NCBI GenBank assembly: GCA_951406725.2
Contig: OX597814.1
Span: 168,330,001 to 168,394,000, forward strand
Direction: 5' to 3'
DNA from: Octopus vulgaris
Lineage: Eukaryota
Length of the DNA: 64,000 nucleotides
The notes beneath the pieces are model-generated. The model did not search any database, was not told the origin of the DNA, and was given only the letters and a program-made list of their open reading frames with translations. The position numbers were made by a program, and so were the translations under genes. Shown piece by piece: positions 14,420 through 57,955 of the stretch (positions are counted from its first letter, which is position 1; each line of letters begins with the position of its first letter).

Positions 14420-14658
14420 ATGCGAAAAGATCTTTTACAATGGGATAGTGCTCTCCAACTTGCTAAAGTTTTAGATCCGGAAAGTATTCCATTCATTTCT
14501 TTGGAGTCAGCTGAAGAATTGGAACTCACTGGGAAATACATGGAAGCCCTTAACCATTATGAACAAGGCATTACCAATCAGAAAGAAGATGAAGAACACA
14601 ATAAAACCTGTGCTGGAGGTACAGCTCGCATGGCCATTCGAATTGGAGATATCAGGCG
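14420..14658 (+). CDS. WDR19: WDR19 exon 4: [27 protein letters not shown]...[11 protein letters not shown]
   Basis: ttcttcatag acceptor, CG|gtaagt donor. Strong match to [27 protein letters not shown]...MSIRMGDIRR. Confidence 0.97.
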
Positions 14659-19855: not shown

Positions 19856-20837
19856 TTCTAATGTGTATACACAGCCCTTTGTAGCTTCATATTTTGTATG
19901 TGTATAAGTATGAACATGTCTAGGCATACATATGTTTTATATGTATGTCTAAGTGTATTTGCATTTCTTGTCAGGTATGTGTGACTATATTCTTACATGT
20001 GTGTTTATATGATTTAGTTTCACTATATTTTATTATTTTATTCCATTTTTCTCTTCCAATCCTTTACTTAACAGGAAGATTTTGAAACTTTTTGGCTGTC
20101 AGTGACTCTACAGTTATTAATTTTTGATTGAAGATACCAGAAAAAAAATTCATAAATCCACCTTTCATAAACTGTGAATTAATGATTTTTAAGTTAGTAT
20201 GATAAGTGCCAAGCATGAAAGTTCTAGCCTGGAGTCACTTATCTAACTTTACAGCCAATTAAAAATGTATATATACTATGTATTATTGAGTTCTTTTTCT
20301 CCTGTTTGTTGTACAAACCTAGTTATAGTTATACATATATATAAATATATATATGTATGTATGTATGTGTGTGTGTGTGTGTGTAAATTATTTTCTAAAT
20401 TCTGGTGATATGTCATGCAATTTAAATTACACTATAGATTTATATATGTGTGTATATATGTTCATATGTGCACACATATGTATATATGTGTGTGTGCATA
20501 CATGTATATACATATATGTGTGCATGTGTATATACATGTGTGTATGTGTGTGTGTGTATATATATATATATGTATGTGTGCATGTCTATACATATGTACA
20601 TCTGTTTATATAACTACACACACATGCATATATTTGTACTATTTACATATGTGCTATATATTCATGTGCATATATGAATATATATACACACACATATATA
20701 CATATAAATGTGTATATATCTATCTATGTATGTATATGTGTGTATATATATACATATGTGTGTGTGTGTTAAATAAAGTGAGACAACAAAGCCAAGGCTG
20801 TGTGGAAATTTCAGGACATTTATAAAAAGACAGTTAG

Positions 20838-20883
20838 TCTTACAGCTGTTTCTGGGATATTAGGGATATCCCTTCATCAGAGA
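20838..20883 (-). ncRNA. Minimal type I hammerhead motif
   Basis: Minus strand reads TCT CTGATGA a GGGATAT-cccta-ATATCCC a GAAA CAGCTG TA AGA. The 10.1/11.1 position is an A-A mismatch. Confidence 0.72.
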
Positions 20884-21358
20884 TGATGTGTGATGGTTAA
20901 ATAGAGGGAAATATTAGAGTTCAATATAAGGAGTTATTTTGGAAAAGGAAGCAAATAAGGATTCTTTTAGATACGAGAAACACAGTAAGTCTACAACATT
21001 CGCCAGTCACATATGTCATCTCAAAAATAGGAATATTTCCTACATCTTGTCATGATCCATAATAGATTCAGGGCTTCCATACCAAGGCCAACGCTTAGCC
21101 TGTAAGTTATGTCTAAAAGAGGCATTCCACATATTAAAACACAACTTTTCAATACTACTAAGTAAATATAATGAGGCCCTAGGTACATGCAACCACCGCT
21201 TTTTCCATACCTTCAAATATATACATCTTTATACATTTTTATTTTTATCTCTGCATTCATTCTCTTATGTCCCTATATGCTCCTTATTTGCTTCATTTTC
21301 CAAAATAACTCCTCATATTGAACTCTAATATTTTCCTCTATTTAACCATCACATATCA

Positions 21359-21404
21359 TTTCTGATGAAGGGATATCCCTAATATCCCAGAAACAGCTGT
21401 AAGA
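21359..21404 (+). ncRNA. Minimal type I hammerhead motif, sense to WDR19
   Basis: TTT CTGATGA a GGGATAT-cccta-ATATCCC a GAAA CAGCTG TA AGA; the predicted cleavage triplet is GTA at 21399-21401. Confidence 0.72.
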
Positions 21405-23058
21405 CTAACTTTCTCTTTATAAATGTCCTGAAAATTCCACACAGCTTTGGCTTTGTTGTCTCATGTTGTATCATCATGGCATCGAAGAGAGCAGAGGGTT
21501 TGGTCTGGGACATGTTTGTGCATTGTGAATGTGTCTGATGGCCAAAGCGGTCTTCTACACAGAAACAGACCTTGGTGAATAGGTCTAGGGTACTGAATCA
21601 GTCTGGGCTTGGCATCCAGTGTGATGATTGCTGGCTTCATGAAGCAATTGTGGATGTTTGGTGCTGGTGGTGTACCAATAAAAGTGGTGCACAATTTTAT
21701 GTGGTACAAAAACTGACTCCAGTACAGTTCCAAAACTCATCACTGACTGGTTTTAGTGACTGCATTGCAGGCTCCCTGCTAAAAAGGTAGTGCTCAGCTT
21801 CAGAGAGAGGTAAGTTTATAGGGAAAATGACAATAGTAAATGGCATAGTGGAGGTTGACAGAGGCCATATTGTATTGGATGGATGGAGTAACTAGAGGTG
21901 GAATAGGAAGGTGTTGTGTGAGCAAAGGTTGTGGTAGAGGGGTGGGAAGGACGGGTGGAAGAAGGGGGGATGGAAGGAGTATAGATAAGATGGGGAAAGG
22001 AGAAATATGGAGATTGGAAGAGGGTATAGTGAGAGTTAGGTATAGAAGAGAGGCAGGGAACAGCAGCTAATGAAGAGGTGGGATAGAGGAGTGAATAAAG
22101 TTTTTGAATCTTTATGGAGATTATATAATGTAAAAGTAAACAATTTGGTGGCCAAAGCAAAATATTGAGTGAGGAGAGGGTAACAAATGTAAGAGAAGGA
22201 GGAGGGCCTAGGGAAGATGACAGTTGAGGGTGGGATTTGGGAGAGGGGGATGAGGCAACCAGGAGAAGTTTGAGAGGAGCAGGAAAAGATGGGTTTAATG
22301 GATTGGGTAGAGAAGGAGGTGGGGGTGAAAGTAGAGTCAGAACCCAGGTGGTGGGGAGGGGCTAAAGCATGGATGCAAGGGACATAGATGGTGTAATGTT
22401 TCAGAGAAGAGGACATGAGTGAAGTGAAGAGGAGGTGATGTTTGAAGCAGAAAATAGGAGCTGGGTGTGAGGAAACAGTTGAAGGTGGAAATGCTGGTCA
22501 CTGATGAAGGTACAGTGGTTAAGCTTGTTAGGATCAAGAAGGGATAAGAAAGAGCAAAAGCAGAAAAACAAATGAAAAAAATTATGAGAAAGGTGGAAGG
22601 AAAAAGGATCTGGAAAATATGGGGAAAGGAAATGAGACAAGAAATTTGGGAGGAGAGAAGGGAAAATTCTTAAAGAGAAAGTTAAAGAAAAAGGAGAGAG
22701 AAAGAAAGAGAGTAAGTCAACAAGGTTCTGGGAAGTTAGTGCAGTGCAAAAAGCAGTAAGAAAATATCCAAAGTAATCCAGGTGATCATCCAATGTAGAG
22801 TTTTAAGGGGGAAATCAAAGTTGGGAGTTTTGAGGTTGAATCTAGAGGAAATCTATGTAATCATTAAAAATATACTGTTAGGTCAATAAGCATTAAAAAG
22901 AACAAGCACAAGTGTTTTGCCATAGATAACATTCATGGCTACCCCACATTATATAAGTGGGGGTGGGAGTAGCTGGGAAGAAGATAAAGATGGTGGTGAT
23001 GAGGTGGCAGTACAAGTTTGATGAATATGGTATTAGTTTGAGGCTCAAACAGCTGAAA

Positions 23059-23470
23059 TCATCATCATCATCATTTAACACCCGCTTTCCATGCTAGCAT
23101 GGGTTGGCCGATGTGACTGAGAATTGGCAAACCAGATGGCTGTGCCAGGCTCCAATCTGAACTGGCAGAGTTTCTACAGCTGGATGCCCTTCTTAACGCC
23201 AACCACTCTGAGAGTGTAGTGGGTGCTTTTACGTGCCACCGGCACGAGGGCCAGTCTGGCGGTACTGGCAATGGCCATGCTCGAAATGGTGTTTTTTATG
23301 TGCCACCTGCACAGGAGTCAGTCTAGCGGCACTGGCAACGACCTCGCTCGAATGTCTTGTTCACGTGCCACCAGCACAAGTGCCAGTAAGGCAACGCTGG
23401 TAATGATCATGCTCAAATGGTGCTTTTTATGTGCCACTGTCATGGAAGCCAGACAGCTGCTCTAGCAGTG
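23059..23470 (-). mobile_element. Family A (GAT)n-tailed SINE-like element
   Basis: Homologous to 719-1300, including the tandem units. Confidence 0.85.
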
Positions 23471-23980: not shown

Positions 23981-24022
<42 letters not shown>

Positions 24023-24236
24023 TTGTTGAAATGGAAAGATGAATTATCTTGTTACGGATTATTCAAAAGTTTAACCGATACCTGGGTAGCAAAAATCACA
24101 GCAGAAAAAACACGGTTGGAGATAAGACCATATGGTGTTGCAACCGTGCGTTGGTGCGGATAATTGAAGTTTAATATAATTAGTGAATGGAAGAAATGGA
24201 GTTGAGCGAAGATTGTACAGAATTCCTTTTATTACA

Positions 24237-24316
24237 TTCTACACATGTTTCAAAGGCCACAATTTTCCAAATTCTGATTAAATAAGGATACCATATTGCA
24301 GCTTTCTCTTCAGGAA
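24237..24316 (-). ncRNA. Type I hammerhead motif (mirror copy)
   Basis: Reverse complement of 24502-24581. Confidence 0.72.
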
Positions 24317-24501
24317 AAACCAGGAATTACGTTGTCAGAACAAAACAAAACAGAGGCGCAGCAAAGCAATTCGAACGAGGACGCTCCTTAAGAGCCCATG
24401 GGTAAAAATCTTTTACCCATGGGCTCTTAAGGAGCGTCCTCGTTCGAATTGCTTTGCTGCGCCTCTGTTTTGTTTTGTTCTGACAACGTAATTCCTGGTT
24501 T

Positions 24502-24581
24502 TTCCTGAAGAGAAAGCTGCAATATGGTATCCTTATTTAATCAGAATTTGGAAAATTGTGGCCTTTGAAACATGTGTAGAA
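24502..24581 (+). ncRNA. Type I hammerhead motif, sense to WDR19
   Basis: TTC CTGAAGA GAAAGCTGCAAT...ATTGTGGCCTTT GAAA CATGTG TA GAA: 12-position stem II with one mismatch, 3-bp stem I, self-complementary stem III. Confidence 0.75.
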
Positions 24582-24635
24582 TGTAATAAAAGGAATTCTG
24601 TACAATCTTCGCTCAACTCCATTTCTTCCATTCAC

Positions 24636-24690
<55 letters not shown>

Positions 24691-25741: not shown

Positions 25742-25817
25742 CGGCGTCAAAATTGCTTCAAAAATATCCAACCGTACTTTGCACAAGGACTGTGCAGAAA
25801 TTCTGGAATCAATGAAG
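25742..25817 (+). CDS. WDR19: WDR19 exon 5: GVKIASKISNRTLHKDCAEILESMK
   Basis: ttttccag acceptor, AAG|gtaga donor. Matches [25 protein letters not shown]. Confidence 0.93.
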
Positions 25818-26079: not shown

Positions 26080-27170
<1,091 letters not shown>

Positions 27171-56180: not shown

Positions 56181-56711
56181 ACACATGAATTCAGACATTA
56201 TTTCACACATATTTACATCTATACTCATGTATTTTTCTTTTTGAGCAGAGTGTTAACGCAGATAATTCAAATGCAGATTGTTTAACATTTTGTCATAAAC
56301 AATTTAAATTATTACTGTTTGACTGGAATTCATAATTATTTGAGTGTTGCAAAATCTTCTGATGGAATCTTCTTTTCAATATTCAGTTTAAATTAAATTA
56401 GTTATGATGTGATCAGACATGATTTCATTTGAGGCAATTTACTATAAATGACAGACAGAAAATAATAGTGAGATGAAAGATGGTTGTTTTAAACGAGCTA
56501 TTTCAGTTCTGGTTTGGAAGAGGCAGATTGGTTATAAGGTTAATATGCTAAATTATTGACTGTATGCTAATAAGTACAAATTTAGCCATAAGTTTGGGAA
56601 TACTTAATATCAATGAGAATACTGGTTACAGTTGAAATCAATAGGCTATACATAAAATGTTTTGTTTTAGTATTTATGTATGTCCTATGTGGGGAAATTA
56701 ATTTTGTCATT

Positions 56712-57955
56712 CTGTGCCGGTGGCGCATGGGGAGCACCATCCGAACGTGGCCGATGCCAGCACTGCCCTGACTGGCTTCTGTGCCGGTGGCACATGGGGA
56801 GCACCATCCGAGCGTGGCCGACGCCAGCACCGCCTCGACTGGCTTCTGTGCCGGTGGCACATAAAAAGCACCAACCGATCGTGGGATCCCGGAACATCTC
56901 GCTGTGCTTGAGGAGACCTGTTGAGTCAAGTGCATGTACATGAACATTGAACCAAATATCAATGGAAACAGTAGTTGTGATACCTGTGCCGGTGACACAT
57001 AAAAAGCACCATCCGAACGAGTGCAGCCTCCTCTGGCTTCTGTGCTGGTGGCACATAAAAAGCACCATCCAAACGTGACCGATGCCAACCCCGCCTCGAA
57101 TGGCTTCTGTGCCGGTGACACATGAACATCGAACCAAATATCAATGGAAACAGTAGATGTGATACCTGTGCCGGTGACACATAAAAAGCACCATCCGAAC
57201 GTGGCCGTTGCCAGTGCAGCCTCCACTGGCTTCTGTGCCGGTGGCACATAAAAAGCACCATCCGAACGTGACCGATGCCAACCCCGCCACGAATGGCTTC
57301 TGTGCCGGTGGCACATAAAAAGCACCATCCAAACGTGGCCAATGCCAGCACCGCCCCAACTGGCTTCTGTGCCAGTGGCACATAAAAAGCCCCAACCGAT
57401 CGTGGGATCCCGGAACATCTCGCTGTGCTTGAGGAGACCTGTTGAGTCAAGTGCATGTACATGAACATCGAACCAAATATCAATGGAAACAGTAGTTGTG
57501 ATACCTGTGCCGGTGACACATAGGAAGCACCATCCGAACGTGGCCGTTGCCAGTGCAGCCTCCACTGGCTTCTGTGCCGGTGGCACATAAAAAGCACCAT
57601 CTGAACGTGACCGATGCCAAGCCTGCCTTGAATGGCTTCTGTGCCGGTGGCACATAAAAAGCACCATTAGAACGTGGCCGATGCCAGCACCGCCTTGACT
57701 GGCTTCTGTGCTGGTGGCACATAAAAAAACACCAACCGATCGTGGCCGATGCCAGACCCCTCTGGCACCTGTGCAGGTGGCACGTAAAAAGCACCCACTA
57801 CACTCGCGGAGTGGTTGGCGTTAGGAAGGGCATCCAGCTGTAGAAACACTGCCAGATCAGACTGGAGCCTGGGGCAGCCCCTGGCTCCCCAGACCCCGGT
57901 CGAACTGTCCAACCCATGCTAGCGCGGAAAACAGACGTTAAACGATGATGATGAT
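56712..57955 (+). mobile_element. Family A element with an expanded 5' array of about 60-bp hairpin units and a (GAT)n tail
   Basis: Roughly 15 copies of GTGCC-GGT-GRCAC-ATAAAAAGCACC, with a higher-order duplication at about 521-bp spacing. The body lies at 57790-57955. Confidence 0.9.

Follow-up and report, generated by a model that had tools for sequence, protein, structure and literature searches.

In the twin priming of L1 elements, two primers are used in each insertion event and the inverted 5′ part is joined by microhomology; there is no overlap between the two cDNAs, and the place at which the second one is primed varies. Penelope-like elements also leave inverted copies, and for those encoding an endonuclease (EN+) both the head-to-head layout and a tail on one side only are already in print (PMC8557442, PMC3846280; accessible parts of both papers). 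The formation of these inverted structures and the choice of microsatellites are named as open questions in PMC8557442, which, in its accessible sections, ties the (TA)n preference of Hydra elements to a CxCX5C linker, while Asn-rich insertions between the reverse transcriptase (RT) and the endonuclease are known from Adineta (excerpts of PMC3846280). Poseidon of Anolis, PAc, was shown in vitro to cut and extend both strands and to start at two internal sites, according to the available portion of PMC11167929. In the literature, subscription papers and preprint supplements aside, we found neither a counted end rule nor a twin-priming model for Penelope-like elements.

Here we analyse a palindrome in Octopus vulgaris, located in an intron of WDR19 within a window of 64,000 nt (the whole stretch of DNA that was studied). 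The palindrome is probably a 5′-truncated, head-to-head copy of a young Penelope-like retrotransposon, made by twin priming of a cut (TA)n at two fixed sites of the element RNA. As an object, it is genomic debris of a kind already described; more is to be learnt from its family.

The insertion and its host intron

The features at the locus are as follows, with element positions counted from end site A.

14420..14658, + strand: WDR19/IFT144 exon upstream of the host intron (human WDR19 752-829, E 1.9e-24)
23983..24019, no strand: left part of the target microsatellite, (TA)18 / (TA)18.5, from a repeat scan
24020..24173, − strand: element tail between end sites A and B, 154 nt, left arm only; continues into the ORF in the parent
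24174..24407, − strand: left palindrome arm, element −227 to site A, antisense to WDR19
24237..24316, − strand: predicted type I hammerhead in mirror orientation, the counterpart of 24502-24581
24408..24410, no strand: head-to-head junction filler, 3 nt; the junction occurs once in the genome
24411..24644, + strand: right palindrome arm, element −227 to site A; its final 5 nt are common to the TA run
24502..24581, + strand: predicted type I hammerhead, from core match and covariation; predicted cut after 24578
24640..24687, no strand: right part of the target microsatellite, (TA)24
25742..25817, + strand: probable next WDR19 exon, closing the 11-kb host intron (76 nt, AG/GT-bounded, phase fits the gap)

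An earlier, sequence-only reading had placed the palindrome in a WDR19 intron, and WDR19 exons on the + strand indeed flank the insertion. A further exon near 30445 matches human WDR19 854-883 (E 9.5e-6), and the nearest exon lies at least 1.3 kb away; Pfam gave nothing informative on the exon candidates, and exon 25742-25817 queried alone had no hit in PDB. The same reading had described two 234-bp reverse-complement arms around a 3-nt loop, and on re-derivation the arms at 24174-24407 and 24411-24644 were found to be 234 nt each with 100% complementarity. It had, however, taken the symmetric palindrome for the whole insertion and missed the 154-nt element tail at 24020-24173, present on the left arm only. 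The full insertion, 24020-24640, is thus larger than the palindrome and asymmetric, the left arm running 154 nt further before its (TA)n. The claim that (TA)n brackets the palindrome holds for the right end, which touches (TA)24, but not for the left, where (TA)18 lies 154 nt off with element sequence between. The copy has no ORF and there is no tandem monomer array at the insertion. The palindrome junction is a single occurrence in the 2.8-Gb genome, and the palindrome therefore does not move as a unit.

A palindrome this perfect could be an artefact of assembly or of read fold-back, and the read data, consisting of assembled contigs only, do not bridge the junction in the contigs of four sequencing runs; flank contigs end at the TA run. 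We give this explanation very little credence, as both flanks are unique and not inverted, the WDR19 exon order is kept, the tail is confined to one side and 85 loci share this layout, many of them with diverged arms; in addition, one contig of an independent sequencing run contains another opposite-strand joint in the same repeat family.

The window contains other repeats. At 20779-21463, in the same WDR19 intron, a second head-to-head pair has 183-nt arms (95%) with 319 nt between them; both arms contain a compact motif resembling a type I hammerhead, of another family (core at 21362, + strand). On the − strand at about 2060-2110 there is a lone hammerhead-like motif of the minimal kind, in which stem III is a palindrome of 4 nt, and no inverted partner of it was found within 1700-2460. 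Frame fragments broken by long (TA)n runs on the − strand at 26187-26940, which we take to be a LINE-type reverse transcriptase, had no hit in Pfam, and arrays of 65-67-bp GC-rich repeats occupy 977-1264, 23227-23437 and 56710-57795 in WDR19 introns.

The parent element

The genome searched comprises 2.8 Gb in 227 contigs. One palindrome arm had at least 50 matches at 97-100% identity, with 40 of 1470 candidates scored, and an exact 25-mer from the right end had 358 genome matches (control, 0). The genome-wide arm search suggested by the sequence-only reading thus returned hundreds of copies, and with them an ORF-bearing, Penelope-like parent: stepwise upstream walking from arm copies reached a locus, L056, with the architecture pLTR-ORF(906 aa)-pLTR, in which a 5′ repeat with ribozyme is followed by a 906-aa open frame, a 3′ region of about 950 nt, the ribozyme again and (TA)n. 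The palindrome arms are 95-100% identical to the 3′ end of the ORF-bearing parent, whose units are 3685-3734 bp long and whose ORFs, of 906-908 aa, carry a YRDD motif. Pseudo-LTRs, partial tandems, inverted 5′-truncated copies and the one-sided tail are all present in the family.

The parent ORF is predicted to contain a telomerase-like RT: in a structure model of an ORF of the sister subfamily, where open frames are 899-908 aa (pLDDT 79, from a 104-sequence alignment), telomerase RTs made up the top eight Foldseek hits (E 5.6e-9). At the C terminus, a putative GIY-YIG-type endonuclease is indicated by the residues IYQC..YVG, R, E and N, which align with 120 homologues and with published Hydra motifs; the one homologue that bears a name is an Argonauta protein. 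Pfam searches with the parent ORF and three homologues, and PDB sequence searches with the ORF and the 104-sequence profile, gave nothing informative. In six of six long ORFs, the linker has 0-2 Cys and no CxCX5C and instead consists of a 157-166-aa Asn/Ser-rich stretch that is predicted to be disordered; a loose form of CxCX5C occurs in 114 of the 121 proteins of the homologue set, query included. We therefore class the parent as an EN+ Penelope-like element that is Hydra-like in its motifs, and not as an established Hydra member.

The Penelope-like origin claimed by the sequence-only reading is upheld, the arms being the 3′ end of a pLTR-ORF-pLTR parent with an RT and GIY-YIG-type ORF, and so are the recent insertion and the TA target. 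Its further claim of a separate, non-autonomous fold-back element was not supported. A short, ORF-less sequence with perfect arms, a ribozyme motif and hundreds of related copies is what an independent element such as a MITE or a retrozyme moving as a palindrome would look like, and yet the single-occurrence junction largely refutes this reading, the sister copies have other centres and the arms nearly match the end of a coding parent; we regard it as scarcely credible. Membership among MITEs or fold-back elements would imply many copies of the same palindromic unit, and this junction is unique; non-LTR retrozymes have tandem hammerhead monomers and no coding parent, and here the parent codes and no tandem unit is found.

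Several observations concern the family more widely. Five loci of the sister subfamily (L213, L214, L215, L216 and L217) have intact-looking ORFs of 899-908 aa, a canonical hammerhead and repeats 98-99.8% identical, and are probably the more recently active lineage. At element position about −290, some copies (e.g. L056, L013) have a splice-donor-like GTAAGT motif upstream of the stop zone described below, and a variant without it is found elsewhere. Three near-identical copies of one region of contig C29 (L003-L007, L017) share the same two inverted insertions and are a recent segmental duplication, not independent events. A few telomere-like TTAGGG units stand at L024:1748-1775, between the TA run and the inner end of a single arm.

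Outer ends follow a strict rule

The outer ends of the copies fall at two places. Site A, at position 0, is the right end of the palindrome insertion, and site B, at about +155, is its left end. Both are internal to the element, as the parent sequence runs through them into the ORF, and both carry AUAU-like bases in common with (TA)n; tails in the family are 154-158 nt long. Our first census examined all 100 listed places of the exact-match set and gave 78 loci after removal of one duplicate, 54 of them two-armed and head-to-head and 24 scored single-armed. An A end was paired with a tail end in all 54 two-armed loci. The same pairing was seen in 31 of 31 two-armed loci when the count was extended to 45 places on later contigs (33 new to the collection and 12 from before), one tail ending at +97 and not near +157; of the 14 loci scored single-armed, two have a partner arm that the scoring rule missed. 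The single-armed loci (24/78 and 14/45) carry no information on the second primer. No A+A or B+B insertion occurs among the 85 two-armed loci, and the second subfamily, scored by eye, has the same A plus tail pairing in 10 of 11. This strict pattern of one short and one long end suggests that both target strands prime copying, at two fixed points, which we consider likely.

The palindrome taken singly does not call for two primers. If a B-primed cDNA reached −227 and folded back, its second strand joining the other target end at A via TA-like bases, this snap-back of a single cDNA would yield an identical sequence, with equal inner ends, a 3-nt loop and identical arms, and it would likewise leave a tail at one end and a short end opposite. 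In 5 of the 54 census loci the inner ends differ by no more than 2 nt, and several single-armed loci have short inverted fillers; both observations fit the same process. Snap-back cannot, however, yield copies in which the A arm reaches further in than the tailed arm, by more than 20 nt in 52 of the 85 (29/54 and 23/31), nor those whose arms do not overlap at all, 23 of the 85 (15/54 and 8/31). Furthermore, many copies end at A without a B arm, and A is therefore a priming site in its own right. Snap-back is thus unlikely, though it is the most serious rival to twin priming.

Self-priming on an antisense RNA template, proposed for the Penelope elements of Adineta, has the merit of being a published account of head-to-head junctions with palindromes (accessible text of PMC3846280), and short self-complementary motifs do exist near −220. 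The copying of a hairpin cannot give non-overlapping arms, however, and the outer ends lie at two fixed sites of the sense RNA with bases in common with (TA)n, so that we hold this explanation to be highly improbable. The end rule and the non-overlapping arms together argue against the view that either fold-back or antisense self-priming is how such copies generally arise.

Junctions and inner ends

Of 52 mapped junctions, 27 contain filler, and among the 25 without, 13 have at least 3 nt in common between the joined ends (8.6% in simulations). Two palindromes without a loop, at L079 and L180, are centred on natural self-complementary 4-mers. In 58 of 60 cases, arms of the same locus differ less between themselves than from the arms of other loci (1.7% vs 4.8%), from which it follows that both arms usually come from one source, and later gene conversion could have added to the similarity. 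The arms of an inverted insertion at L064:4645-6234 belong to two subfamilies that differ by 23%, and a tail piece of 53 nt separates them; among the loci collected, nothing closely related to the tailed arm was found. This points either to a single event that used two RNA templates or to a nested insertion.

The inner ends concentrate in a stop zone at −240..−211, which holds those of 24 of the 62 arms at risk in comparison with 10% in other bins (p 3e-9; replicated). Ends at exactly −227/−228 number 7 of 166. Both inner ends of the palindrome copy lie at −227, within this zone, and a perfect palindrome of such a size is therefore unsurprising. That the zone stems from the start of transcription is a guess on our part; upstream repeats reach −343 to −416, so longer templates exist. 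Inner ends equal within 20 nt were in excess in the first census (14/54 vs 4.3 expected) and not in the second set (2/31 vs 2.3), and the excess, having failed to replicate, does not establish a run-off of both arms from one RNA end.

The hammerhead motif

The core letters that the sequence-only reading had reported in each arm, and the cut predicted after 24578, are as it stated. On the + strand they are CTGAAGA at 24505-24511, stem II at 24512-24566, GAAA at 24567-24570, CATGTG and TA, with a TTC/GAA stem I, and the − strand carries the mirror copy. The assignment to type I with a self-complementary stem III also agrees with our prediction, in which the core CUGANGA, GAAA and NUH is joined by a stem I of 3 bp, a stem II of 12 positions with a 31-nt loop and a stem III of 2 bp within a self-complementary 8-mer. 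The Rfam check that it had set failed: across the 64-kb window there were no hammerhead matches at the gathering score, and the 28 matches at E<=10 were hairpin-type chance hits, none of them a hammerhead, probably because stem II bears a long insert.

In an alignment of 15 variants, related sequences with one row from a distant family, 87.4% of the cells are paired and 10 of 18 pairs show two-sided change (shuffles 0/500; slid controls 34-52%), the covariation being mostly in stem II. Such covariation across subfamilies is support, not proof, for a putative type I hammerhead. Pair 10.1-11.1 is G-U in the palindrome copy and G-C in 10 of the 15 variants; in the hammerhead of the sister subfamily this pair is the canonical G10.1-C11.1, and stem III is a perfect palindrome. 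The predicted monomer fold is not favoured (z −0.15; probability of stems I and III <=0.01), as is expected of dimer-type hammerheads of this kind, which are weakly active (available part of PMC4209133), and the computed energy of the stem III homoduplex is −6.0 kcal/mol.

The arms diverge from the centre, and the antisense arm therefore precedes the ribozyme in transcripts of either strand; the sequence-only reading's picture of a transcript with a ribozyme and its own antisense arm fits this head-to-head layout. In the computed fold of the full palindrome RNA (−456 kcal/mol), stem II has a probability of 0.000, and the prediction is that pairing with its own antisense, in a helix of 234 bp, silences the ribozyme of the palindrome. 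This bears on the idea that WDR19 uses the insertion as a regulatory device, either a ribozyme switch or a source of double-stranded RNA. Long perfect RNA helices in pre-mRNA can be edited or diced, and a perfect 234-bp helix could share that fate. The insertion is, however, very young, at least 1.3 kb from the nearest exon and one of hundreds of copies, it has no sign of selection, and its ribozyme is predicted not to form from its own fold; a host function has a very slim chance of being right.

We rejected the notion that inner ends mark the ribozyme cut, finding no enrichment there (5/37 in the first set and 2/27 in the second; pooled 7/64 vs 3.8, p 0.086). This agrees with the accessible sections of PMC11167929, according to which insertion of PAc can dispense with ribozyme cleavage and nothing indicates that ends fall at the cut.

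Hammerhead-like motifs are common in the flanks scanned: a relaxed scan of the collected loci gave more than 25 further ones, in most of which stem II carries a long insert and stem III is palindromic (examples are L121:604, L129, L166:301, L196:2650, L222:1364 and L227:5001), and these are likely to be missed by Rfam-type models.

A proposed twin-priming model and its implications

Starting from the observed parent, sites A and B, end rule and stop zone, we infer the steps of cutting, priming and joining to run as follows, taking the two start sites and the both-strand extension of PAc as precedent. The GIY-YIG domain would cut both strands within (TA)n, and one target 3′ end would prime at A and the other at B, assisted by 4-5 bases of AUAU pairing. 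At the palindrome locus, both cDNAs would stop at −227, inside the stop zone, and be end-joined with a 3-nt filler. For the arms to overlap, either a single RNA would have to be copied twice in succession or two RNAs of the same source would have to be used. The resulting copy, lacking an ORF, would be a dead by-product. The PAc study found the strands not to differ in start site, and the cut DNA to have no homology to it (available portion of PMC11167929), a counterpoint to our model.

In a bolder reading, Penelope-type insertion would be an obligatorily asymmetric twin-priming reaction, in which a dimeric RT-endonuclease takes one target strand to A and its partner to B, start sites separated by about 155 nt on the RNA; a single step would then account for the inverted copy as well as for the tail on one side. 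In the same reading, (TA)n targeting would do without the zinc-finger linker to which it has been credited. We advance this generalisation tentatively, as a possibility that we come close to favouring; were it true, a family with intact ORFs would make both the priming and the linker-free targeting directly testable. The 85/85 end rule, the non-overlapping arms and the linker-less, TA-targeting ORF provide sharp predictions for an in vitro assay. Head-to-head copies are, in addition, predicted to silence their own ribozyme, which may aid their persistence in introns.

Comparison with known systems

With the animal non-LTR retrozymes (bioRxiv 10.64898/2026.07.22.740005; PMC7229834; accessible parts of both), the palindrome has in common a type I hammerhead, a relation to pLTRs and the lack of coding capacity; retrozymes are, however, tandem monomer arrays, whereas the palindrome is an inverted stub of a coding element.

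With the Hydra clade of Penelope-like elements (here as described in the accessible parts of PMC8557442), the octopus family shares the DKT motif, a C-terminal GIY-YIG that lacks CCHH and in which CxxC and CxH surround the conserved E and N, the (TA)n target and a type I hammerhead in the pLTR; by eye, its RT motifs also agree with the Hydra alignment in print. It differs in having an Asn/Ser-rich stretch of 157-166 aa in place of the CxCX5C linker, RWL instead of RWK, a length of 3.7 kb instead of less than 3 kb, a tail of about 155 nt and a much longer stem II loop, and it inserts in (TA)n despite the missing linker. Identity with Hydra-1_Obim was rejected, that element being 2507 bp long with another ribozyme sequence.

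The inverted, 5′-truncated pLTR insertions of EN+ elements likewise combine a head-to-head truncated copy with a one-ended tail and partial tandems (excerpts of PMC8557442 and PMC3846280). The one-sided tail is 30-40 nt in these published parts and 154-158 nt in the octopus family, where, unlike in those descriptions, it is counted as a strict rule (85/85) and tested against fold-back. In comparison with the twin priming of L1, the second primer is fixed in the octopus family and the arms usually overlap. Poseidon of Anolis carolinensis (PAc; available portion of PMC11167929) also has two internal RT starts bounding a tail, the cutting and extension of both strands and an AT-rich target; only a few tens of bases separate its starts, which are reported as non-homologous to the target, whereas the octopus sites are about 155 nt apart and AUAU-like.
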